DNA of 64,000 nt from an uncultured Opitutus sp. (GCA_964476965.1 CAYZCV010000003.1:1184-65183); one strand, 5' to 3'. Positions 15,133 through 34,511 are shown, counted from the first letter of the stretch. The notes: generated by a model not told the origin, from the letters alone. Translations and numbers: made by a program.

Positions 15133-15321
15133 GAGAAAAGGGTAACGGGCAAAGACACTTCTCGGCGCGGCGGGGCGCAGCGAGAGCGGGTCAGCAGGGC
15201 AAAGCGTCCACGTGCAAGACGGAGGCCGCAGGGACGCGCCCATTGGACCGGGCTTTGGTCCAGGCCGGGGTCAGGCCTGACGACGAAGGAAAAGAGCGAG
15301 GGTTTGGGCGGCGTTGCGCCA

Positions 15322-15361
15322 CCCGTTTCGAAAACGGTTGCGGCGCCCAAGGCGCCGCAAC
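15322..15361 (-). terminator. Second and third hairpins in tandem behind the terminator
   Basis: A perfect 11-bp GC-rich stem, GTTGCGGCGCC-CAA-GGCGCCGCAAC (15337-15361), sits next to CCGTTT-CGA-AAACGG (15322-15336). On the minus strand the latter supplies a TTTT run. Confidence 0.45.
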
Positions 15362-15369
15362 GCGGCCAT

Positions 15370-15408
15370 AAAAAAGCTTCACTCCCGAATCAGATCCGGA
15401 AGTGAAGC
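15370..15408 (-). terminator. Rho-independent terminator downstream of the TonB-dependent receptor gene
   Basis: On the minus strand: GCTTCACT - 17-nt loop - AGTGAAGC followed by TTTTTT (plus-strand AAAAAA at 15370-15375). The stem arms are 15376-15383 and 15401-15408. It starts about 20 nt after the stop codon. Confidence 0.7.
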
Positions 15409-15428
15409 GAAAGACCGAGTCAGGTTCC

Positions 15429-17639
15429 TTAGAACTTGTAGGTCGCGGCGAACGTGAACGTGCGCGGCGGGCTCGGGTCAACGAAGAGCGGGGTCTGCGC
15501 ACCCATCGCGAACGCCTTGTCGAGGACGTTCTCGATGTTTACGCGGACGGTCCAGTTCTTGTTCACCACATAGCCGACGAACATGTTCATGTTCCAGACC
15601 GACTCGAGGACGATCGGGGCCGGGGTCACACCGGTCGGATAGATGTAGGAAGCGCCCTGGGTGGAGAAGTAGTTGCCACCGGTCTTGCTGGCGCCGCCGC
15701 CGATGCTGACACCCTTGAGGGCGCCCTCGTTGAACTCATAGCGGGTGAAGAAGCTGTAGAGGCTGTCGTAGGTGTTGTTCACCTTGGCACCCGTCTGGTC
15801 CTCAACCGTACCGCGATAGGCCGTGGCAATGATCTGCCACTCCGGGATCGGGGCCCAGGAGATGTTGCCGTCCCAGCCCTTCTGGTACTGTACGCCGGCG
15901 GCCGCGAAGAACGGCTGCTGGGTGATCGGGCTGAGGCCGCCCTGGAGCACGGCGACATTGGTCAGCTCGATGTCGAAGTACGACAGCGTGGTGGACAGAC
16001 GACCGCCGAAGAGGGAAGTCTTGAGACCGAACTCCTGGCCCTTGCCGACCTGAGCGGGAAGCAGGATGCCGTTCACGTCACGGGTGTTGCTGTTGCCCTG
16101 GGGCGCGAAGGTCGTGGAGTCGAGGACGTAGAGGGCCACATCCTTGATCGGGTTGAAGACCACACCGTAACGGTGGAGGTTTTCATCGAACTGCACGATG
16201 CGCGTGCCGCCCGCCGTGTTGCGGGTCAGGATGTTCGGGACGTCGTTGATCTGCAGCGAGGCGGCGCTCCAACCAGCCACGAGGATCAGGCGGTCAGGAA
16301 TGACCGTCGCCTGGTGCTGGTAGTAGTAGGTCGCGCGGCGATTGTTCGTCCACGTGCCGAAGGAGCCGACCGGAACATAGGAGTCGTAGGTCGGGACGAC
16401 CACGGAATCCATGTTCGGGTTCGAGATCGAGAAGGCCTGCGCACCGGTGCCGCCGCCGAAGGTCGTGCTGCGGGGGAAGGAACCGCGGACATACTCGTCG
16501 GTCAGCGTGAAGCCGGCCGCGCTCTGGTTCTCAACGGAGCCGATCTTGTAGGTGCCGATGATGTCCTGATTCAGCACCCAGTTTTCCTGGCGCTGGTAGT
16601 TGCGACGGGCGAAGAGCGTGAACTCGTTCTTCACCAGATCGAGGCCCTGCGGAAGCAGGTTCGTGCCCTTGCGAACGTACTTCAGGTGCGAGAGGGAGGT
16701 CTTGGACTCCCAGTTGTCAGCAAAACGGAAGAGCAACGCGGCGCGCTGGCGCAGCTGGTTGTGGTTTTCCATGATGCCCTTCGGGTAATAGCCCTCGTCA
16801 CGGCCGGCGCCGGTGTAGAGCTTGCCGTTCGGGAGGACGAAGTTCTGGCCGCCAGCGATCGAGTCGATGTCCACATAGTCAAGCGCGACACGGACGGTCG
16901 CATTCTTGAAGTCGAACTGCATGGTCGGATGGAGCGCCACGCGGTCATCCTTCATGTTCTTGAGGAAGGTGTCGCCGCCCTGGAAGGCCGCGACCGCACG
17001 GTAGGAAACCTTGGTGTCACCGAGATTGCCCAGCGGGCCGGTCGAATCGACCTCCGCGCGATAAAGGCCCTCACTGGTGATCGAGGCGTTGACGATCTGC
17101 TGATCGAACGGGAGGGGCTTCTTCGTCGATTTGAGGACGATGCCGCCGACACCCGCATTCGCGTAGAGCACGCCGGCGGGGCCGCGGATGACCTCGTAGG
17201 AGTCAATGTTGACGTTGTCGCTGTACGGCACGTTCTCGATCGAATCGTCGAGATACGGGTTCAACGTACGCGCGCCGCGGAGGCGGACGGACTCACCGCG
17301 GTAGAACTGGCTGGCACCGCCGATGGCCAGGACGTCCGAAGTGCGGACGGCGCCGATGTCCTTCACCAAGTCGCTCGTGATAACGAGAATCGACTGGGGA
17401 ATCTTGATCAGCTCCTGGTTCGTCTTGAAACCGGAGGCGGCGTTGTTGGCAACGTAACCACGGTCCTGGGTCGACTGAACTTCGAATTTCGACATCTGCA
17501 CGACGTTCTCCGAGGCGTTGGCGCTCGGAGTGGCGGCGGGCGAGGTCTGGGCGGAAGAGAACACGGACGTGGCAAGCGAAGCCACGCACGCGGTGAGGGT
17601 CTTGGTGACGAGCGAAGTGCGCGATTTACTGGGTGTCAT
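15429..17639 (-). CDS. TonB-dependent outer-membrane receptor
   Basis: Track ORF 15429..17699. I prefer ATG 17639 (MTPSKSRTSLVTKTLTACVASLATSVFSSAQT signal peptide) because the conserved 15-bp site at 17681-17695 would otherwise fall inside the CDS. Plug-domain motifs (IPQSILVITSDLVKDIG, IEVIRGPAGVLY-like) and the terminal beta-strand FTFAATYKF are present. Confidence 0.9.
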   Translation of the reverse strand: MTPSKSRTSLVTKTLTACVASLATSVFSSAQTSPAATPSANASENVVQMSKFEVQSTQDRGYVANNAASGFKTNQELIKIPQSILVITSDLVKDIGAVRTSDVLAIGGASQFYRGESVRLRGARTLNPYLDDSIENVPYSDNVNIDSYEVIRGPAGVLYANAGVGGIVLKSTKKPLPFDQQIVNASITSEGLYRAEVDSTGPLGNLGDTKVSYRAVAAFQGGDTFLKNMKDDRVALHPTMQFDFKNATVRVALDYVDIDSIAGGQNFVLPNGKLYTGAGRDEGYYPKGIMENHNQLRQRAALLFRFADNWESKTSLSHLKYVRKGTNLLPQGLDLVKNEFTLFARRNYQRQENWVLNQDIIGTYKIGSVENQSAAGFTLTDEYVRGSFPRSTTFGGGTGAQAFSISNPNMDSVVVPTYDSYVPVGSFGTWTNNRRATYYYQHQATVIPDRLILVAGWSAASLQINDVPNILTRNTAGGTRIVQFDENLHRYGVVFNPIKDVALYVLDSTTFAPQGNSNTRDVNGILLPAQVGKGQEFGLKTSLFGGRLSTTLSYFDIELTNVAVLQGGLSPITQQPFFAAAGVQYQKGWDGNISWAPIPEWQIIATAYRGTVEDQTGAKVNNTYDSLYSFFTRYEFNEGALKGVSIGGGASKTGGNYFSTQGASYIYPTGVTPAPIVLESVWNMNMFVGYVVNKNWTVRVNIENVLDKAFAMGAQTPLFVDPSPPRTFTFAATYKF

Positions 17640-17680
17640 TTGGTTGGCAGGGCTAAGAAAGAGGACCGCTAAGCGGACCA

Positions 17681-17695
17681 CTATTGTATACACTG
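17681..17695 (-). promoter_or_regulatory. Candidate operator of the FadR-type GntR regulator, copy 1 (reads CAGTGTATACAATAG on the minus strand)
   Basis: 15/15 identical to the plus-strand sequence at 18675-18689. Palindromic core TGTATACA. Lies 42-56 bp upstream of the preferred TonB-dependent receptor start. Confidence 0.55.
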
Positions 17696-17923
17696 TCACG
17701 ACACCGTGACGTTAAGTCAAGCCCTCTGCATACGGTTCTCCGCAGGGAATCTTGCCTGCCCGCGACGTTGCGAACGGCCTACCCCGCCCGCGAGATACAC
17801 CGGTTCAAGACCGTGTTCCCTGATTTGAATCCGTCCGACAGGAGGCAGGGCCGAAAGCGACCGGCCGGACCGGTTTTGCCGGAGACCTTCGTCGGGCCCG
17901 CGTCGCGGGACTCGCCCCCCCGA

Positions 17924-18658
17924 TCAAAGGATAATCGGCTCCGCAAGCATATTGAACGCATCCATTTGCGCTTTGCTGCGACTGCCGAGATCGTGTTCGA
18001 TCAGCTCGTGGAGGTGGTACTCCATCGCCCGCTTGGCGCCGAAGGAGTCTGAGGCCGCGATGGCATGATAAATGTCGGCGTGCTTGGCCTGGACCATTTT
18101 GCGACGCGCATCGTAAACCGCCTTGTTCGAGGCCGGCTTTTCGCCGACGTTCGGCCCGGCCAGGACGCGCTCAAGGAGGTGCAGGCGAACAATCTCTTTT
18201 TTCATGAGATGGTTCTTCGCCGCCTCCATGATGGCCAAGTGAAACCGGGCGTCCTCCCGCGCGAGTTCCTGCAACATCGGGTGCTCCTGCTCCGACATGC
18301 GGATCCGCTCCACCAGGTCACCCATGGTCTCCAGCGCCTGCCGGATCTCGCGGAGGTCCGCGTCCGTGCGATTGCGCGCCGCCAGGCCGGCCGCATGACT
18401 TTCCAGCGCCAGCCGGAGATCACACATCTCACGGAACTCCTTTAAATCGATAGATTTAACTGTCGCACCCAGGTGGGGCTTGATCTCCACCAGTCCATCC
18501 GCCTCCAATTTGCGCAGGGCATCCCGGATCGGCGTGCGACTGACCTTGATCTCCTCCGCCAGGTAGCCGGTCATCAGCGCAAAGCCCGGGGGAAACTGGC
18601 CGTTCAGCACCCGTTTGCGGATATAGTCATAGGCAACATCTGTGTTGACACTTTTCAT
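17924..18658 (-). CDS. GntR-family transcriptional regulator, FadR subfamily (FCD effector domain); NanR-like
   Basis: N-terminal winged HTH (YLAEEIKVSRTPIRDALRKLEADGLV) plus an all-helical C-terminal FCD-type domain. Divergent from the 18784 operon. Confidence 0.9.
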   Translation of the reverse strand: MKSVNTDVAYDYIRKRVLNGQFPPGFALMTGYLAEEIKVSRTPIRDALRKLEADGLVEIKPHLGATVKSIDLKEFREMCDLRLALESHAAGLAARNRTDADLREIRQALETMGDLVERIRMSEQEHPMLQELAREDARFHLAIMEAAKNHLMKKEIVRLHLLERVLAGPNVGEKPASNKAVYDARRKMVQAKHADIYHAIAASDSFGAKRAMEYHLHELIEHDLGSRSKAQMDAFNMLAEPIIL

Positions 18659-18674
18659 CTCCGGATCGACCTCT

Positions 18675-18689
18675 CAGTGTATACAATAG
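18675..18689 (+). promoter_or_regulatory. Candidate operator of the FadR-type GntR regulator, copy 2 (CAGTGTATACAATAG)
   Basis: Lies in the 125-bp divergent region between the GntR gene (start 18658) and the eight-gene operon (start 18784). It has the same orientation relative to the downstream catabolic gene as copy 1. Confidence 0.55.
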
Positions 18690-18783
18690 AATTTGCCCCA
18701 CACGCAATCCTCCGTTCAGATATTCTGACCGGATGTGCAGGCCAGATCGAAACCCCGGCAGGTTTTCCTAACCCCAAATCCAC

Positions 18784-19797
18784 GTGCATTCACTTCTCGT
18801 TATCGGCTGCGGAAGCATAGGCGAGCGTCATTTGCGTTGCTTCCAGGCGACCGGCCGGGCCCGGCCCACCGCCTGCGACGCCTCCCCTGCCCTGCTCGAG
18901 ACCATTGCGAGGACCTACCAGGTTCCGACGACGACCGACTGGCAGCAGGCGCTGGCCACCGGCTCATTTGACGCGGCGGTCATCTGCACCCCCGCCCACC
19001 TCCACGTGCCGATGGCGACGCAGATCCTGAAGCAGGGCATTCCGGTCCTGATCGAGAAGCCGCTCTCGCAATCGCTCGCCGGCATTCAGGAACTCATCCA
19101 GACCCGCGATGCGTCCCGCCGGGTCGCGGTGGTCGCCTACGTGCTCCACGTGTTCCCCATCCTCAGCCAGGTGCGCGATTTCCTCCGCAGCGGTGCGCTC
19201 GGGCCGGTGCTGCACGCCACCAGCGTCAGCGGCCAGAATTTTCCGAGTCTCCGGCCGGCGCACGCCGCGCACTACTCGAAGACGTACTACCGCGACCGCA
19301 AGATGGGCGGCGGCGCGATTCAGGATGCCCTCACCCACACGGCCAACTGGATGGAGAGCGTGCTCGGGCCGACCGACAGCTTGATCTGCGACTGCGCGCA
19401 TCTCGCTGTTCCCGACGTCACGGTCGAGGACACCGTCCACATCAGCGCGCGCAACGGCGGCGCACTCGTGAACTACTCCCTCAACCAGTTCCAGGCGCCC
19501 AACGAGTCAACCCTCCAGTTCAACACCGCGCAGGGCAGCGTGCGCATCGACCTGCACCTGCGGCGCTGGGGCTGGTTCCGTCTCGGCGACAAGGACTGGA
19601 CCTGGAACGAGGTCCCCGCCGTCGAGCGCGACACCCACTTCACCGAACAGGCCAATCGCTTCCTCGACCTGATCGAGGGGAAGCCAGCTCAACTCTGCTC
19701 TCTCGAGGCCGCGCTGCAGACGCTCCGCTTCAATCTCGCCGCCCTGGAGTCCGCCGAGTCCGGCTCCCGCGTGGCCTGCGCCACGGTCAAGGGCTAG
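18784..19797 (+). CDS. Gfo/Idh/MocA-family NAD(P)-dependent oxidoreductase
   Basis: GTG start. LLVIGCGSIGERH Rossmann motif, AVICTPAHLH and LIEKPL (EKP motif). Confidence 0.85.
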   Translation: MHSLLVIGCGSIGERHLRCFQATGRARPTACDASPALLETIARTYQVPTTTDWQQALATGSFDAAVICTPAHLHVPMATQILKQGIPVLIEKPLSQSLAGIQELIQTRDASRRVAVVAYVLHVFPILSQVRDFLRSGALGPVLHATSVSGQNFPSLRPAHAAHYSKTYYRDRKMGGGAIQDALTHTANWMESVLGPTDSLICDCAHLAVPDVTVEDTVHISARNGGALVNYSLNQFQAPNESTLQFNTAQGSVRIDLHLRRWGWFRLGDKDWTWNEVPAVERDTHFTEQANRFLDLIEGKPAQLCSLEAALQTLRFNLAALESAESGSRVACATVKG

Positions 19798-19823
19798 CTC
19801 CTCTCCTCCGCTCCCCCGTCGCC

Positions 19824-21116
19824 ATGAAACGAGCCCACACCCGCCCGCCTTCCGCGCGCACCTCCCAGGCGCCCGCTCGTCCCGTCCGCAAGTCCCGCCC
19901 GGCCGCCGCCGCCCGTCCCGCCATCGACATCGATGCGAACCGGCGCCTGCTGAACAATTATCGCTTCGTCGAACACGAGGGCCTGCGCCTGCTCGCCGGC
20001 TGGCTGCCCCGCGCCGCGACCTTCGAGCTCAAGTGCGAGATGGGCCGCACGCTCTGGGAATACTCCCAGCACGTGAACGCCCTCTACCTGCGCCTGCGCG
20101 AAATCCAGTCGCCCGCCTTCCAGCTGCCGTCAGATCCCGCCCTCGTCCAGGTCATGCGCGAGCTCGTCCACGCGCCCGATGAATTCGGATTCCTGCTCGC
20201 CCTCTTCCGCGAGATCAACCCGAGCCTGATCCGCGCCCTCGAGTCACACGAGAAGGCCACCTTCCCCAACAGCGACCAGCCGAGCGTGCACGTGATCAGC
20301 CACGCCCTCCTCGACCTGCGCGGCCAGATGGCCCGCGTCGAGCCCCTGCTTCGCGCCGCCGAGCGCGCCGGCAAGGTCACCCCGGCCGCCCGCCAGTGGC
20401 AGCGCTACATCGCCCGCCTGCTCGCCGCCGCCGGCGGCGTCAGCGGGCGCGAGAAGCGCGCCGCCGCCCCGGTGGCCGCGCCCGCCGTCCGGACGGAATT
20501 CAAAATGCCGCGCGAGGCCGCCCGCGACGAGCGCTTCACCAATCTGCTCGCCGACCAGGTCGCCATGCCCAATGAGGAACTCTACGATGCGCACACCGTC
20601 GAGGAGTTCGAGCGCTACTCCACCGAGATGCTCGCGGCGGAGACGGTCGCCTTCATCCTCTACAGCGTCGAGGGCATGCCCTGGGAGTTCCAGTACGACA
20701 GCGCCCGCCATCTCTACGACGAGGTCCGGCACTGCCTGATGGGCTACGAGTGGATGCGCGCCCACGGCATGAATCCCTTCAAGTCGCCGCAGTATGTCCA
20801 CATCTACAAGTGGCGGAGTCAGTTTCCGCCCGTCATGCAGTACTGCATGCTCACCATGGGCAATGAGGAGCACGCCTTTCCCTACCGCCACCGCCGCGTC
20901 GAGGCCCACCAGCAGGCCGGTGACAAGCTGAGCGAGCAGTTCGTGCGCTACGACATCGCCGACGAGACCCAGCATGTGCGCTTTGGCCGCCGCTGGCTGC
21001 CCGAGCTGCTCAAGCATGTCGGGGAAAAGCGCTCGCTCGCCGACTACAGCACCGCCGTGCTCAAGGTCTGGGCGGATGAGTACCGCACCGGCAAGCTCAC
21101 CCTCAACGTCGAGTAA
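19824..21116 (+). CDS. Ferritin-like (di-iron carboxylate type) protein of unknown function
   Basis: The C-terminal half carries an E...ExxH...E...ExxH pattern: EMLAAE, DEVRH, NEEH, DETQH (about nt 20625-20975). The protein looks largely helical. The N-terminus is basic and Pro/Ala-rich. No family assigned with certainty (DUF455-like from memory). Confidence 0.45.
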   Translation: MKRAHTRPPSARTSQAPARPVRKSRPAAAARPAIDIDANRRLLNNYRFVEHEGLRLLAGWLPRAATFELKCEMGRTLWEYSQHVNALYLRLREIQSPAFQLPSDPALVQVMRELVHAPDEFGFLLALFREINPSLIRALESHEKATFPNSDQPSVHVISHALLDLRGQMARVEPLLRAAERAGKVTPAARQWQRYIARLLAAAGGVSGREKRAAAPVAAPAVRTEFKMPREAARDERFTNLLADQVAMPNEELYDAHTVEEFERYSTEMLAAETVAFILYSVEGMPWEFQYDSARHLYDEVRHCLMGYEWMRAHGMNPFKSPQYVHIYKWRSQFPPVMQYCMLTMGNEEHAFPYRHRRVEAHQQAGDKLSEQFVRYDIADETQHVRFGRRWLPELLKHVGEKRSLADYSTAVLKVWADEYRTGKLTLNVE

Positions 21117-21129
21117 GCCCCGCCCACCC

Positions 21130-22089
21130 ATGAGCCTGGTCAAGCATCCCCACGCCATCCGCCTCGCGATGCTCGGCTGCACGCCGGGCAACGGCCATCC
21201 CTACTCGTGGAGCGCCATGTTCAATGGCTACAACCGCGAGGCGATGACCAAGGAGTGTCCCTTCGCCGGCATCCCCGTCTACCTCAACAAGCAGCCGACC
21301 GAGGGCTTCACCATCCCCGGCGCCCAGGTCACGCATATCTGCTGCACCGGTGAGGGCGGCTTCACCGCGGAACATGTCGCGAAGTGCTCCCTCATCCCGC
21401 ACGTGGTCAAGGAGCCCACGGATGTGATCGGACACGTGGACGCCGTCATCATCGCGACCGACATCGGCGGCGAACACGTGGAGCGCGCCCGCCCGTTCAT
21501 CGAGGCCGGTCTGCCCGTCTTCATCGACAAGCCGCTCACCGACAACGCGCCGGATCTGCGGACGTTCATCGCCTGGGCCGACGCCGGCCGGCCGCTCATG
21601 TCCTCCAGCAGCATGCGCTACGCGAAGGAATACCTGCCCTACCGCATCTCCACCCGCGAGCTCGGCGCCCTCCGCTACGTCAGCATCACGACCCCGAAGA
21701 GCTGGGAGACCTACGGCATCCACGCTCTGGAGGGCATGTACCCGATCCTCGGTCCGGGCTTCCTCAGCGCCCGCAACACCGGCTCGCCCTCCCGCAATGT
21801 CGTCCACCTCAAGCACCAGAACGGGGCCGATGTCATCGTCGTGGCCAACGCCGACATGTACGGCGGCTTCGGCTGCCTGCAGCTGATCGGCACCGCCGGC
21901 CACGTCAACCTGACCACCGGCGACACGTTCTTTTCCTTCAAGTCGCAACTCGAGGCCTTCATTAGCTATCTGCGCACCGGCACGCGTCCGTTCCCGTTCT
22001 CCGAGACCGTCGAACTGATGCGCCTGCTCATCGCCAGCCTCCGCAGCCGCGACGAGGGTGGCCGCGAGGTCCCTCTCACTGAAATCTAA
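21130..22089 (+). CDS. Divergent Gfo/Idh/MocA-like oxidoreductase
   Basis: Track ORF 20974..22089 trimmed to ATG 21130 (MSLVKHPHAIRLAMLG). Has DAVIIATDIGGEH...AGLPVFIDKPL (EKP-like DKP). The glycine-rich loop is atypical (LGCTPGNGHPYSW). Confidence 0.55.
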   Translation: MSLVKHPHAIRLAMLGCTPGNGHPYSWSAMFNGYNREAMTKECPFAGIPVYLNKQPTEGFTIPGAQVTHICCTGEGGFTAEHVAKCSLIPHVVKEPTDVIGHVDAVIIATDIGGEHVERARPFIEAGLPVFIDKPLTDNAPDLRTFIAWADAGRPLMSSSSMRYAKEYLPYRISTRELGALRYVSITTPKSWETYGIHALEGMYPILGPGFLSARNTGSPSRNVVHLKHQNGADVIVVANADMYGGFGCLQLIGTAGHVNLTTGDTFFSFKSQLEAFISYLRTGTRPFPFSETVELMRLLIASLRSRDEGGREVPLTEI

Positions 22090-22106
22090 GCACCCACCCC
22101 ACCCCT

Positions 22107-22928
22107 ATGAACCTCCGCCCCAGCCGCGTGCTCAAGCTCCTGCGCGAAAAGCAGCTCCCGACCGTCCTCAAGATCAACCTGTCGGACCCGCGGGTCACCG
22201 AGATCGCCGGCCTCAGCGGCGTCGACGCCGTCTGGCTCTGCATGGAGCACGTGCCCAATGACTGGGTCGGCATCGAGAACCAGGTCCGCGCGGCACGGGT
22301 CCACAACATCGACAGCTTCGTCCGCGTCGGCCGCGGCAGCTACAGCGACTACATCCGCCCGTTTGAGGCTGACGCCACCGGCATCATCGTGCCCCACGTC
22401 GCCAGCGCGGCCGAGGCCCGGCAGATCGTCGAGTGGGTCCGCTTCCATCCGATCGGCAAGCGCGCCCTCGACGGCGGCAACATCGACGGGCAGTTCTGCC
22501 TCGTCCCGATGGACGAGTATATCCGCCACTCCAATACCGAGCGGGTCGTCATTCTCCAGATCGAGTCCCCCGAGGCGCTCGAGAATGTCGAGGCGATCGC
22601 GGCCGTTCCGGGCTTCGACGGCATTCTCTTCGGCCCGGGCGACTTCAGCCACCGCATCGGCAAGGCCGGCCAGATCGACGCCCCCGAGGTCGTCGCGGCC
22701 CGCAAGCGTGTCGCCGTCGCGGCCCGCCAGCACGGCAAGTTCCTCATGACCGCCGGCCTGATCGCCCCGCTCGAGGAGCTCGTCGCCGAGGGCTATCACG
22801 TGATCGGTATCGGCGCCGACGTGGTCGCCATCACCAGCTACGCCAAGCAGCGCCTCGATCTGGTCCGCGGCCTGATCGACAAGCTCCCGCCGACGCTCAA
22901 GCCGGCCCTGCGCTCGCCCTACGCCTGA
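22107..22928 (+). CDS. HpcH/HpaI-family class-II (metal-dependent) pyruvate aldolase
   Basis: DAVWLCMEH, VRVG, GIIVPHV, ILQIES and LFGPGDFS are typical of HpaI / 2-keto-3-deoxy-acid aldolases. Confidence 0.85.
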   Translation: MNLRPSRVLKLLREKQLPTVLKINLSDPRVTEIAGLSGVDAVWLCMEHVPNDWVGIENQVRAARVHNIDSFVRVGRGSYSDYIRPFEADATGIIVPHVASAAEARQIVEWVRFHPIGKRALDGGNIDGQFCLVPMDEYIRHSNTERVVILQIESPEALENVEAIAAVPGFDGILFGPGDFSHRIGKAGQIDAPEVVAARKRVAVAARQHGKFLMTAGLIAPLEELVAEGYHVIGIGADVVAITSYAKQRLDLVRGLIDKLPPTLKPALRSPYA

Positions 22929-22975
22929 GTCGCCCCGCGTTCCGGCGCCCGTCCCGCCCCCGCCCTCCGCCGCCC

Positions 22976-23734
22976 ATGCGCCTCGCCTCGCTCGTCACGG
23001 TCGTCACGGGCGGAGCCTCCGGCTTTGGCGAGGGCATCGCCGAAACCTTCGCCGCCGAGGGCGCACGCGTGGTCGTGGCCGATCTCAACGCGGACGCAGG
23101 GGAGGCCCTCGCCGCGCGGCTGCGGGCGGCTGGACACGCGGCCCGGTTCTGCCGCACGGATGTCACCCGGACCGACGACATGGCCCGGCTCGTCGCCGAC
23201 TGCCTCGCGCACTTCGGCCGCCTGGACGTGATGGTCAACAACGCCGGCATCAGCCACGCCAACCAGCCCATGCTCAACGTGGGCGAGGCCGAGTTCGACC
23301 GGATCTTTCAGGTCAACGTCAAGAGCCTCTACCTGGCCGCCGTCCACTGCGTGCCCGTTTTTCGCCGCCAGGGCGGCGGCAGCTTCATCAATATCGGCTC
23401 CACCGCCGCCGTCCGCCCGCGCCCGGGCCTTACCTGGTACAATGGCTCCAAGGGCGCAGTCCTGCTGCTGACCAAATCCATGGCGGTCGAACTCGCGCCC
23501 GACCGGATCCGCGTCAACGCGATCAATCCCGCCCTCGCCGAGACTCCGCTGCTGGCGACGTTCATGGGCGGGAATGATACGCCCGAGCTGCGCGCGAAGT
23601 TCCTCGCGTCCATTCCGCTCGGCCGCCTTGGCCAGGCCCGCGACGTCGCGCACGCCGCCGTCTTTCTCGCCGATCCCGCCTCCGACTTCATCACGGGCGC
23701 CTGCCTCGAGGTCGACGGCGGCCGCTGCATCTGA
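22976..23734 (+). CDS. Short-chain dehydrogenase/reductase (SDR)
   Basis: Track ORF 22433..23734 trimmed to ATG 22976 (MRLASLVTVVTGGASGFGEG). NNAG, YNGSKGA (YxxxK), C-terminal GACLEVDGG. Confidence 0.9.
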   Translation: MRLASLVTVVTGGASGFGEGIAETFAAEGARVVVADLNADAGEALAARLRAAGHAARFCRTDVTRTDDMARLVADCLAHFGRLDVMVNNAGISHANQPMLNVGEAEFDRIFQVNVKSLYLAAVHCVPVFRRQGGGSFINIGSTAAVRPRPGLTWYNGSKGAVLLLTKSMAVELAPDRIRVNAINPALAETPLLATFMGGNDTPELRAKFLASIPLGRLGQARDVAHAAVFLADPASDFITGACLEVDGGRCI

Positions 23735-23754
23735 ATCCTTTCCTCCTCCCTCCC

Positions 23755-24543
23755 ATGGCTGAAACCACCACCATCTCCCTCCACGACAAAGTCATCATCC
23801 AATTCGGCGGCACCGGCCTGCTCGGTCGCGCGCTCGTGAAGTCCCTCTCGTCGGCCGGCGCCAACCTCATCGTCGCCTCCCGCAACCGCGCCGCCCTCGA
23901 ATCCCTCGCCGCCTCAGAGCTCGCGGCCGGACGCACCGTCCGGATCGAGGAAACCGACATCGGCTCCGAGGAGTCGCTCCTCGCCCTCCGCGACCGCGTG
24001 CTCAAGGCCCACGGCCGCGTCGACGGCATCGTCTTCAACGCCGTGGCCCGCCCGATGCGGTCGATGGATGACGACCTCTCCATCTGGCGCGCCTCGATGG
24101 AGGTCAACGCGACCGGCTTCTTCGCCACCTGCCGCGTGTTTGGTGACGCCATGGCCAAGCAGGCCGAGGGCGGCAGCATCGTGAACATCGGCTCGATCTA
24201 CGGCATGGTCGGCAGCAATCCCTCGCTCTACGAGGGCACGAACATGACCACCGCCCCCGACTACTTCTTCCACAAGGGCGGCATGGTCAACCTCACCCGC
24301 TACCTCGCCTCCCACTACGGTCCGCAGCGCGTCCGCGTCAATGTCGTCTCCCCCGGTGGCATCTACAATCCGGAGAAGCCCCAGGCCCCCGAGTTCATCG
24401 CCCGCTACAACAAGATCACCATGCTAGGCCGCATGTGCGACGCCCGCGAGGTCGGCGGCGCAGTCATCTTCCTGCTCAGCGACGCCTCCACCTACGTCAC
24501 GGGCGCCAACCTTCCGGTCGACGGCGGCCACACCGCCAAATGA
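23755..24543 (+). CDS. Short-chain dehydrogenase/reductase (SDR), paralogue of 42497..43291
   Basis: Glycine-rich loop (IQFGGTGLLGRA), YFFHK (YxxxK), NLPVDGG. The long block PDYFFHKGGMVNLTRYLASHYGP..VRVN..SPGG is shared with the SDR at 42497..43291. Confidence 0.85.
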   Translation: MAETTTISLHDKVIIQFGGTGLLGRALVKSLSSAGANLIVASRNRAALESLAASELAAGRTVRIEETDIGSEESLLALRDRVLKAHGRVDGIVFNAVARPMRSMDDDLSIWRASMEVNATGFFATCRVFGDAMAKQAEGGSIVNIGSIYGMVGSNPSLYEGTNMTTAPDYFFHKGGMVNLTRYLASHYGPQRVRVNVVSPGGIYNPEKPQAPEFIARYNKITMLGRMCDAREVGGAVIFLLSDASTYVTGANLPVDGGHTAK

Positions 24544-25319
24544 GCCGCTGGCACTCCCTCGAAGGCAAGACGGTCTGGGTCACCGGCGGCGCCGGTTACC
24601 TCGGTTCCGCCATCACGATCGAACTCGATCAGGTCGCGGCCAAGATTCTCTGCTTCGACCTGCCGGGCCGCGCCGAGGCCCTCGTCCGTGACCACGGGCT
24701 CAAGCGGACTATTCCGCTCACGGTCGACATCAACCGCGCTGACACGCTTCCCGGCGAGCTCGACCGCCTCCTCGCCGAGCACGGAGTCCCTGACGGCGTG
24801 GTCCACCTCGTCACCGCCTCCTCCGGCGGCAAACGTCTTGAGGTCCTCTCGCCTGAGGAGTTTCAACGGACCTTCGATCTTGCGCTCACCCCCACCTTCA
24901 TCCTCTGCCGCACCCTGGCCGAGCGGATGAAGCCCCGGGGCAGCGGCAGCATCGTGCTCTTCGCCAGCATGTACGGCGTGGTCGCGCCCGACGCGCGCAT
25001 CTACCACGATCCCATGGCGCCCAACCCGATCGACTACGGCGCAGCCAAGGCCGCCACGATCCAGCTCACGCGCTACTTCGCCATGCACTACGGTCCGGCC
25101 AACATCCGGTTCAACTGCGTGACCCCCGGCCCGTTCCCGAATCCGACCGTGCAGAAGAACCACCCCGCCTTCATTGCCGACCTGAACAAGAAGACCGTCC
25201 TCGGTCGCGTCGGCCAGAATCCGGAGATCGTGGGCCCGACCCTGTTCCTGCTGACCGACAGCGCGTCCTTCGTCACCGGGCACAGCCTCGTGGTCGACGG
25301 CGGCTGGACCATCTGGTGA
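24540..25319 (+). CDS. Short-chain dehydrogenase/reductase (SDR)
   Basis: Track ORF 24435..25319 trimmed to ATG 24540, which overlaps the previous stop (ATGA). VWVTGGAGYLGSA, YGAAKAA (YxxxK), SLVVDGG. Confidence 0.85.
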   Translation: MSRWHSLEGKTVWVTGGAGYLGSAITIELDQVAAKILCFDLPGRAEALVRDHGLKRTIPLTVDINRADTLPGELDRLLAEHGVPDGVVHLVTASSGGKRLEVLSPEEFQRTFDLALTPTFILCRTLAERMKPRGSGSIVLFASMYGVVAPDARIYHDPMAPNPIDYGAAKAATIQLTRYFAMHYGPANIRFNCVTPGPFPNPTVQKNHPAFIADLNKKTVLGRVGQNPEIVGPTLFLLTDSASFVTGHSLVVDGGWTIW

Positions 25320-25347
25320 ACACCCGCGGCGGCCTGCACCCCGACCA

Positions 25348-26046
25348 TTGCCCATGATCCCTTCCGCCCCGCCGTCCGCCGCGCCATGGGTCGCCCTCCC
25401 CTGTGCGCCAAATGCGGACCGCCCGGCGCCGCAGGAGGCAGGCGGGGTCGACGAAACCTGGCGCCCACTCGGCCAGGCCTGGCGGCGCGCCGGGCTCGAG
25501 CCGGGCTTCAATCCCGGCTGGGCCCGCCTGCGCTGGCAGCCCTCCGCCCTCGAGGTCGAAACGATCTTTCTCGGGCGCAATCCGCGCAACCGGGCCCGTA
25601 AGCTCAACGAGCGCACCTGGGAGTTGGGCGATATCGCCGAGGTCTTCGTGCTGGCGCCGGACGGCCGGACTTATGTGGAGATCCACGTCACGCCGGAGAA
25701 CCAGCGGCTCCAGCTCCGCTGGCCGCGCGACGGCCTCGCCCGCTTCCGGGCCGGTACCGCGACGTTGGAGGACTTTCTCGTGAGCGATCCCACGTGGATC
25801 GCGAGCACGACCCACCTCGGATCTGATTTCTGGTCGGCCCATGCGACGATTCCCTTCACCGCGCTGGGCCTCGATCCCGCCGCGCCGTCTGCGCCCGGAC
25901 CGCGCGTCGCGATCTGCCGCTACGACTGCACCCGCGGCGGCGAGCCCCTGCTTTCGTCCACCGCCCCGCTGCAGGAACCGAACTACCATCGGGTCGACGA
26001 CTGGCCGCCCCTGTCGCTGACCGGCACGCCCACGCCCGCAGCCTGA
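25348..26046 (+). CDS. Hypothetical protein, CBM9/DOMON-like carbohydrate-binding fold (tentative), no signal peptide
   Basis: The pattern LRWQPSALEVETIFLG, WELGDIAEVFV, YVEIHVTPEN and RVAICRYD resembles family-9 carbohydrate-binding-module-like proteins as I recall them. Last gene of the operon. Confidence 0.35.
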   Translation: MPMIPSAPPSAAPWVALPCAPNADRPAPQEAGGVDETWRPLGQAWRRAGLEPGFNPGWARLRWQPSALEVETIFLGRNPRNRARKLNERTWELGDIAEVFVLAPDGRTYVEIHVTPENQRLQLRWPRDGLARFRAGTATLEDFLVSDPTWIASTTHLGSDFWSAHATIPFTALGLDPAAPSAPGPRVAICRYDCTRGGEPLLSSTAPLQEPNYHRVDDWPPLSLTGTPTPAA

Positions 26047-33362: not shown

Positions 33363-34511
33363 GTGTCTCAAGAATTTTTTAGCCGAGGCGGGAGTTTTCT
33401 TTTGCCTCCCACCCCGCCGGGCGCATTCGATCGGCGGGTGAGCACCGGCTTTTCCCAGACCCCGCACATCGTGGAGCTGGCCCGGCGGCTGGAGGAGGAT
33501 ATCCGCCAGCGGGGCCTCAAGCCGGGCGACGCCTATCTCGACCTGAAGAAATCCGCCCGGATGCTCGGGGTGAGCAACTCCACGGCCAACCGGGCGCTGC
33601 AGCTGCTGACGCAGCGCGGCGCGCTCACCCGGGTCCAGCGTCTCGGCACCTTTGTCAGCGCGCCTCCCGCCGCCGCCGGTCCGCGCGCCCTGCGGCGGGT
33701 CTTCATGATCATGCACCGCGGCTATCTCCAGCAGGAGGGACGGCTGGCGGACGGTCTGCTCGTCGGCATCCAGAGCCAGCTCCCCGGCGCGGAGGTGCAG
33801 TTCAATTTTCTGCCCGCCACCGATCCCGCCCCCTTCGTGCACCAGCTGCTGGGCGAAATCCTCCGCGCCAAGGAGCCGGCCGGGATCGTCATCACCAAGG
33901 CGCCCTATGTGGTGCAGCGCCTCGTCAAGGACAGCGGCCTGCCCGCCGTCGTTCACGGTTCCCTTTACCCTTCCCTCTCCGGTCTGGCCTGGGTGGAGCA
34001 GGACAATCCAGCCATCGCCCGACTCATCGCCGGTTACATCCGGACCCACGCGTCCCGCCACATCTGCGTGCTGGCCCGCGAGACGATGTTTCCGGGCGAC
34101 AACGAAGTCCTCGCGGAACTGGGCCGGCTGCTCGGCGCCGCCGGGTTTTCCGCCGCGGACTTTTCCGTGCGTCACCTGCCCGACGATCCCCGGGCCATCG
34201 CGGCCGAGATCGATGCCCAGATCGCCCGCCATCCCGCCGATCTTTGCCTGGTGTGCCGCTCGGAGGCCAAGGCTGAGGCCGCTCATCAGCATCTCGGCAC
34301 GCTCAAGCTGCGCGGCCGCCGTCGTCCGCGGCTCATCGCGAGCGGGGTACTCCAGCACGCGCCGGGCTCCGCCCCGTACCCGTGCATCTATCCGACCCTG
34401 CCGCCCGAGGACATCGGCGCCGCCATCGGTCGTCTCCTCGCTCAGCAGGTGTCCCACCCCAAGCGGCCACCTGGCAATGTGGTCGAGCCGGTCGCGCTCT
34501 CCGAGGGCTGA
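33363..34511 (+). CDS. AraR-type regulator: GntR winged-HTH fused to a LacI/PBP1-like sugar-binding domain
   Basis: HTH block LKKSARMLGVSNSTANRALQLLTQRGALTRVQRLGTFV followed by a roughly 270-aa alpha/beta domain. The start is uncertain: ATG 33363 leaves only 25 bp to nanA, and GTG 33438 is an alternative. Confidence 0.6.
   Translation: MSQEFFSRGGSFLLPPTPPGAFDRRVSTGFSQTPHIVELARRLEEDIRQRGLKPGDAYLDLKKSARMLGVSNSTANRALQLLTQRGALTRVQRLGTFVSAPPAAAGPRALRRVFMIMHRGYLQQEGRLADGLLVGIQSQLPGAEVQFNFLPATDPAPFVHQLLGEILRAKEPAGIVITKAPYVVQRLVKDSGLPAVVHGSLYPSLSGLAWVEQDNPAIARLIAGYIRTHASRHICVLARETMFPGDNEVLAELGRLLGAAGFSAADFSVRHLPDDPRAIAAEIDAQIARHPADLCLVCRSEAKAEAAHQHLGTLKLRGRRRPRLIASGVLQHAPGSAPYPCIYPTLPPEDIGAAIGRLLAQQVSHPKRPPGNVVEPVALSEG

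Follow-up and report, generated by a model that had tools for sequence, protein, structure and literature searches.

Probable operators flanking the gene of a predicted VanR-type GntR regulator in a putative sugar-acid catabolic locus of the Opitutaceae

The palindrome TGTATACA, found on either side of a GntR-family regulator gene in a catabolic locus of the Opitutaceae, is very probably, as read from sequence, the binding site of the repressor encoded between its two copies, through which that repressor would control its own gene, a TonB-dependent receptor gene and a sugar-acid operon. The window analyzed here is a 64-kb stretch of DNA (C3:1184-65183 of assembly G000), whose host was placed in the Opitutaceae (Verrucomicrobiota) via relatives named in public records. 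An earlier note on this DNA had proposed that a 15-bp site occurring twice in it was the operator of the adjacent GntR/FCD regulator. We now consider it highly likely that both sites are operators of this VanR-type FCD GntR protein (17924-18658), that the element recognized is TGTATACA, and that the regulation would be autoregulated repression released by an effector.

The regulator gene (17924-18658, minus strand) encodes P0001, a protein of 244 aa assigned to the GntR winged helix-turn-helix (wHTH) plus FCD, VanR-type class from Pfam (GntR and FCD), an AlphaFold2 model and Foldseek. Downstream on the same strand lies the gene for the TonB-dependent receptor (15429-17639; Pfam Plug and barrel domains; translated from 17639), a proposed target of copy 1 of the site, followed by a terminator-like hairpin (15376-15408) and, beyond it, by genes for YhcH, a GDSL esterase, a DHDPS-like protein, an SDR and an enolase-superfamily dehydratase. 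The presumed target of copy 2 is a divergent catabolic operon (18784-26046, plus strand), in which Pfam matches identified a Gfo/Idh/MocA protein, a DUF455-like protein, a Gfo-like protein, an HpcH aldolase, three SDRs and a gene of no assigned kind; its synteny with the regulator gene recurs in about 25 loci.

The 15-mer CAGTGTATACAATAG has two exact copies in the window, as the earlier note had stated for the receptor upstream region and the divergent region. Copy 2 (18675-18689, plus strand; core TGTATACA at 18678-18685) occupies the gap between the regulator gene on the minus strand and the Gfo1 operon on the plus strand, 17-31 nt from the regulator ATG (18658) and with its core 98 nt before the operon. 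Copy 1 (17681-17695, minus strand; core at 17685-17692) lies past the regulator stop codon, 42-56 nt from the receptor ATG at 17639, its core being 45 nt before that ATG. The two sites are 993 bp apart, and both are oriented alike relative to the catabolic gene downstream, which confirms the orientation described previously. The identity of the copies ends at exactly 15 bp. A reading of the pair as a duplicated segment was rejected, because the flanks differ and are unrelated; an RNA hairpin was also rejected, because the 8-nt palindrome has no loop.

The site is rare. Matches to CAGTGTATACAATAG with up to 3 mismatches numbered two in the window, namely the two copies themselves, against an expectation of 0.12 from shuffles. 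A genome-wide scan, which the earlier note had suggested as a check, recovered no third exact copy in the 3.89-Mb assembly (66% G+C); the sole further match within 2 mismatches in the whole genome was CATTGTATACAATAT at C83:600-614. The core TGTATACA occurred four times in the genome compared to about 1.3-1.5 occurrences predicted by Markov models of order 1-3. Within the 64-kb window, no site with up to 1 mismatch from TGTATACA was found beyond the two; the operons of YhcH (with the gap upstream of it, 15244-15428), nanA and the sialidase are thus all free of such sites. Given this absence of other sites within 1 mismatch, the regulon in the window would, on sequence grounds, be limited to the regulator gene, the receptor and the divergent operon.

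P0001 matched the Pfam GntR (1.5e-14) and FCD (1e-18) families. Its AlphaFold2 model (24-sequence alignment; pLDDT 83.8) consists of a wHTH followed by a six-helix effector domain (helices at residues 72-96, 99-121, 128-147, 150-167, 179-201 and 205-238). Foldseek ranked the Brucella GntR protein 7u5q and the Atu1419-DNA complex 6za3 (TM 0.68) first and placed Escherichia coli NanR (TM 0.44) and FadR (TM 0.35-0.41) lower. By its modeled six-helix domain and its VanR-type top matches, the regulator is a VanR-type FCD protein, and Atu1419 is its closest characterized relative, despite an identity of only about 22%. Residues S40, R41, T42 and R45 align with the Atu1419 DNA contacts S44, R45, T46 and R49, and D136, H140, H193 and H215 align with its metal ligands N137, H141, H192 and H214; both sets are invariant in 24 orthologues. 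As a separate observation, the C-terminal tail (17924-18010) of the regulators in the window and in the closest related locus, L017, is divergent, shorter and modeled with low confidence, and both proteins lack the ARELTxEELxY motif that all other orthologues keep.

The comparison with Atu1419 extends to the DNA. This VanR-group protein of Agrobacterium fabrum (PDB 6Z74, 6ZA3) binds ATGTATACAT, and its Arg45 reads a G (PMC7797058). The operator core is the same here, ATGTATACAT corresponding to (A/T)TGTATACA, and the two systems also share the GntR wHTH with a six-helix FCD domain, the S-R-T-P-x-R DNA contacts, equivalent metal-ligand positions and the presence of several sites per locus, at the regulator's own and neighboring catabolic promoters, where the sites in the window would likewise lie over the -10 or in the spacer. 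They differ in that Atu1419 governs hydroxycinnamate/vanillate degradation, whereas sugar-acid or sialic-like catabolism is indicated here, in a different phylum (Verrucomicrobiota), and in that the Atu1419 sites are 109-190 bp apart compared to 993 bp in the window.

Other members of the family are less similar. FadR of E. coli (TGGTNxACCA) binds in the manner general to GntR proteins, as a dimer on a GT...AC palindrome whose G is read by a conserved Arg, but differs in its seven-helix effector domain, acyl-CoA effector and longer half-site spacing as well as in its low TM score. NanR of E. coli, a FadR-type protein (PDB 6ON4, 6WFQ), is likewise a GntR/FCD repressor tied to sialic-acid genes, and its GGTATA unit matches TGTATA in 5/6 bases, the resemblance to which the earlier note had drawn attention. 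However, the E. coli NanR operator consists of three tandem direct GGTATA repeats, whereas each site in the window is a single inverted repeat. No NCBIfam equivalog cut-off was reached by the regulator, the NanR model NF003011 giving 41.5 bits versus 260. The TM was 0.44 for NanR compared to 0.68 for Atu1419. The analogy is superficial, and E. coli NanR is not a close relative. DgoR, the D-galactonate repressor of E. coli, uses the related TTGTAGTACAA inverted repeats (PMC11705089, PMC7674646). Like the protein proposed here, it belongs to the FCD proteins, represses a sugar-acid operon, has an effector pocket that contains metal, binds operators over the promoter and controls its own gene; in contrast, it belongs to the FadR group, its half-sites are one extra central base apart, and its two inverted repeats lie close together in one promoter.

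Evidence linking site and regulator came from orthologous loci, whose conservation of the site had been named as a further check. A scan of species-representative genomes yielded 31 loci with regulator relatives at 55-90% identity, nearly all from Opitutaceae metagenome-assembled genomes, with ORF starts taken from simple ORF calls. In 28 of 30 distinct loci, TGTATACA (8/8 bases matching; 7/8 in three) preceded the regulator ATG by 25-28 nt, a position that strengthens the earlier suggestion of autoregulation. One of the two exceptions, L037, has TGTATCCG (6/8) at the regulator-proximal position; the other, L025, represents the first copy of a tandem pair of regulator genes, the second of which carries the 7/8 core TGTATACG at -27. 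L020, L021 and L025 have two tandem regulator genes that share about 64-66% identity with P0001, and TGTATACA-type sites precede the copies. In the roughly 25 syntenic loci, the order SDRs-HpcH-Gfo2-(DUF455)-Gfo1 runs divergently from the regulator gene, which is followed by the receptor gene or by YhcH/DHDPS-like genes.

A second core, 37-45 nt before the receptor ATG, was present in about 10 loci (L017, L020, L022, L023, L024, L028, L029, L034, L037 and G025), and in loci without a receptor it stands before YhcH instead. This conserved core-to-ATG spacing, together with an ATGAC start context also kept in the orthologues, upholds the shorter receptor start at 17639 that had been favored in the earlier note; from there the product opens with a hydrophobic run that, judged by eye, would be a signal peptide. 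The site also fixes the start codons of both the receptor and the regulator genes. Across 267 kb of orthologous loci, we counted 54 sites with at least 7/8 core bases and GTATAC intact, nearly all in these promoter gaps. The main exceptions were six CGTATACA/AGTATACA sites at the regulator 3' end in one clade and two sites inside or beside coding sequence. In this clade (L039-L047), the distance from CGTATACA or AGTATACA to the regulator stop codon is 15 nt; the sequence there encodes the conserved tail EELVY, so that its retention may reflect coding conservation only or mark an extra site.

Alignment of the sites anchored on the core gave 2.0 bits in six of the eight columns and 1.8 and 1.4 bits in the remaining two, and about 0-0.3 bits in the three columns flanking the core on either side. 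Since the core columns are informative and the flanks carry almost no information, the conserved unit is the 8-bp palindrome, not the 15-mer. The earlier description of a 15-bp site therefore stands for its 8-bp core, whereas the identity over 15 bases is specific to this genome: in L017, whose regulator is 90% identical and whose operon-side 15-mer is the same, the receptor-side copy reads CGTTGTATACATTAG, with 12/15 bases matching. The seven extra identical bases may reflect local promoter elements (TACAAT within the 15-mer) or discrimination from the TTGTATACAA sites of a paralogue, described below. The recognition helix VSRTPxRDAL was unchanged even in homologues of 38-55% identity with the degenerate upstream sites TGTATGCA, TGCATACT and TATATATC; because the helix is identical even where sites degenerate, covariation between helix and motif was uninformative. 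Candidate auxiliary half-sites, TGCATACG (17727-17734) and TGTTGACA (18643-18650), were rejected, having 2 mismatches each, which is chance level, and the first is not kept in L017.

We asked how the sites sit relative to promoters. A consensus sigma-70 scan of 15200-18900 returned no E. coli-type promoter, and a genome-wide TTGAC(A)-Nx-TA spacer search gave no usable signal, coding sequence dominating the hits. The tRNA promoters of the genome, a small calibration, have TTGACx, a 16-18-nt spacer and a weak T[A/G]nnTT hexamer. More broadly, the Opitutaceae promoters seen here (regulator upstream regions of L018-L047; tRNA genes of G000) seem to combine a good -35 (TTGACx) with a weak -10 (T[A/G]nnTT). 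By the tRNA-promoter rule, TTGACT (17715-17720, minus strand; 22 nt upstream of the core) and TGACAG (17693-17698, minus strand; 16 nt after TTGACT) would form the receptor promoter as TTGACT-N16-TGACAG. The operator at 17685-17692 directly follows TGACAG and would cover the expected receptor transcription start. In at least 11 orthologous receptor promoters, TTGAC[AT] starts 27-29 nt upstream of the core (-28 to -23 in most), and most carry gTATG at -9 to -5 relative to the core. A second palindrome, GTCACGACACCGTGAC (GTCACG-N4-CGTGAC; 17695-17710), adjoins copy 1 between TTGACT and the operator; its stems are kept and its loop differs in L017, it is absent from more distant orthologues, and it may serve another factor.

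For the regulator promoter, the candidate -35 is TTGCGT (18702-18707, minus strand), conserved in L017, from which a 16-nt spacer would put the -10 on the first six bases of the core (TGTATA) in both the window and L017. In these two loci GGAG precedes the regulator ATG. Most orthologues instead show TTG at -10 to -8 and G(T/C)AT at +11 to +14 around the core, with an invariant A at +13, a pattern that would correspond to a -35/-10 pair whose 16-nt spacer holds the operator (TTGnnn-N16-TAT). Most of them have about 12 nt between TAT and the ATG and lack a Shine-Dalgarno sequence, so that the regulator would be translated from a leaderless or almost leaderless mRNA. No promoter could be placed for the plus-strand operon: the operator overlaps or adjoins TACAAT and TAGAAT, but neither has a good -35 ahead of it.

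These positions bear on the sign of regulation. Some GntR/FCD proteins activate, and an upstream activating position is possible at the plus-strand operon, given that its promoter was not located. That genuine operators would here serve activation rather than repression is nonetheless very unlikely: cores inside the predicted -35/-10 spacer of the orthologous regulator promoters, and directly after a -10-like hexamer at the receptor, are placements typical of steric repression. The characterized relative has a layout like the one proposed here, Atu1419 repressing its own gene and two neighbors from palindromes over the -10 box or in the spacer (PMC7797058).

Further evidence for repressor-operator pairing came from the distribution of TGTATACA in related genomes. 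In G025 (5.0 Mb), the four genomic copies all fall on a single contig, each in a promoter gap whose genes are orthologous to window genes: the Gfo1/regulator gap; the receptor operon (receptor, dehydratase, 2-hydroxyacid dehydrogenase and YhcH); the gap between nanA-AGE and a divergent aldo-keto reductase (AKR) gene; and the gap between Gfo3-FMN dehydrogenase-NanM and a divergent MFS permease gene. In G016, the regulator is encoded on a different contig and has the 7/8 site TGTATACC. Elsewhere in that genome, perfect sites persist at the Gfo1 operon, with TGTATACA 31 nt before the Gfo1 start, and at the receptor gene and an SDR gene. The sites thus stay with their targets, as a trans-acting regulator would have it. 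This retention of sites at unlinked targets, along with the fixed distance to the regulator ATG and the additional core before the receptor, supports the earlier proposal that the site is the operator of the adjacent GntR/FCD regulator.

The nan genes differ between genomes in this respect. In the window, the nanA-AGE-NagB operon has no TGTATACA and is divergent from the gene of a second regulator (33363-34511, plus strand) that has a GntR HTH and a long C-terminal domain without a Pfam match. G025 lacks the gene of this second regulator and has TGTATACA in the equivalent 81-bp gap. The comparison suggests regulatory rewiring of the nan operon. Among six genomes scanned, five held 4-8 copies of TGTATACA and G021 held 42. 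Separately, a palindrome of about 23 bp, AGTGTCACGTAWTRCGTGACACT, has about 18 copies in G000, some in pairs 80-140 bp apart; those outside the window include C2:62763, C13:43306, C23:18655, C32:27454, C37:23739, C44:13752, C56:16899 and 17037, C99:3112 and 3191, C116:11448 and C120:11046, among others. It could be a global-regulator operator or a REP-like repeat.

The two remaining TGTATACA occurrences in the host genome raise the question of which FCD protein uses the motif. One, at C83:603, lies between a paralogous FCD GntR gene (32% identical) and a gene for a D-aminoacylase-like amidohydrolase, followed by that of a BNR protein; the other, at C21:14398, is at the start of an M14 carboxypeptidase (peptidase) gene, in codons 5-7. 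Both (L048 and L049) read TTGTATACAA. They probably belong to the paralogue, in a small regulon of its own concerned with peptides or amino acids. Motifs such as TGTATACA are generic to the VanR/FCD type, and since the paralogue has its own TTGTATACAA site, the motif alone cannot assign a site to one regulator. On that basis the sites in the window might be bound mainly by another FCD regulator, such as the one on C83, or shared among paralogues, the identical core and the paralogue's own divergent gap and peptidase gene site being in keeping with this. We regard that reading as highly improbable, because the core keeps its fixed distance to the ATG of orthologues of P0001 in the 28 of 30 loci, every genomic copy in G025 is at orthologues of this locus, and the paralogue has its own site, conserved with it in G004, where the C83 arrangement recurs. 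Finally, TATACA and TACAAT resemble -10 hexamers and TTGCGT-N16-TGTATA can be drawn for the regulator promoter in the window, but it is extremely unlikely that TGTATACA serves as a core promoter element, a TATAC box resembling a -10, rather than as a protein operator, or that the 15-mer pair is a functionless duplication remnant, as all eight palindromic positions are conserved, the two site classes occupy different places (spacer versus just after a -10-like hexamer), the tRNA promoters of the genome lack TGTATACA, and the unrelated flanks leave no duplicated segment.

Taking the two sites as operators of P0001, we infer the following mechanism. A dimer of the regulator, possibly a tetramer as in Atu1419, would bind TGTATACA with one wHTH per half-site, and Arg41, like Arg45 in Atu1419, would be expected to touch the G of TGTA. 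Without effector, the protein bound at both promoters would block RNA polymerase. At 18678-18685 it would cover the regulator's core promoter, providing negative autoregulation together with control of the Gfo1 operon; at 17685-17692 it would cover the receptor transcription start and so block polymerase there. Binding of a carboxylate effector at the metal site (D136/H140/H193/H215) would free the DNA. Both the gene content and the G025 regulon point to a sialic-acid-related sugar acid or an intermediate of the pathway as the probable effector.

Extending this to the whole gene set, we tentatively propose that three gene sets make up a single co-regulated Opitutaceae pathway: the oxidative operon, which encodes two Gfo/Idh/MocA proteins, a DUF455 di-iron protein, an HpcH aldolase and SDRs; the cluster of receptor, YhcH, esterase and DHDPS-like genes; and the canonical nanA-AGE-NagB genes. 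In this proposal, which is possible though we would not yet favor it, the signal for the regulator would be a sugar acid derived from sialic acid, and the oxidative operon would add a new branch to the catabolism of nonulosonic acids. A single regulator would serve all of these promoters in G025, and the nanA operon of the window would have passed to the second regulator (33363-34511).

In itself, the system is an ordinary bacterial gene switch, a routine repressor-operator pair of a well-studied family; what is useful is the regulon link of the oxidative operon to the nan genes. The rarity of the core in GC-rich genomes means that its occurrences point directly to co-regulated promoters, making it a regulon marker. 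The sites in G025 tie an uncharacterized di-iron/oxidoreductase operon to classical sialic-acid genes and thereby offer, through the effector that would release the regulator, a route to the substrate of that operon.
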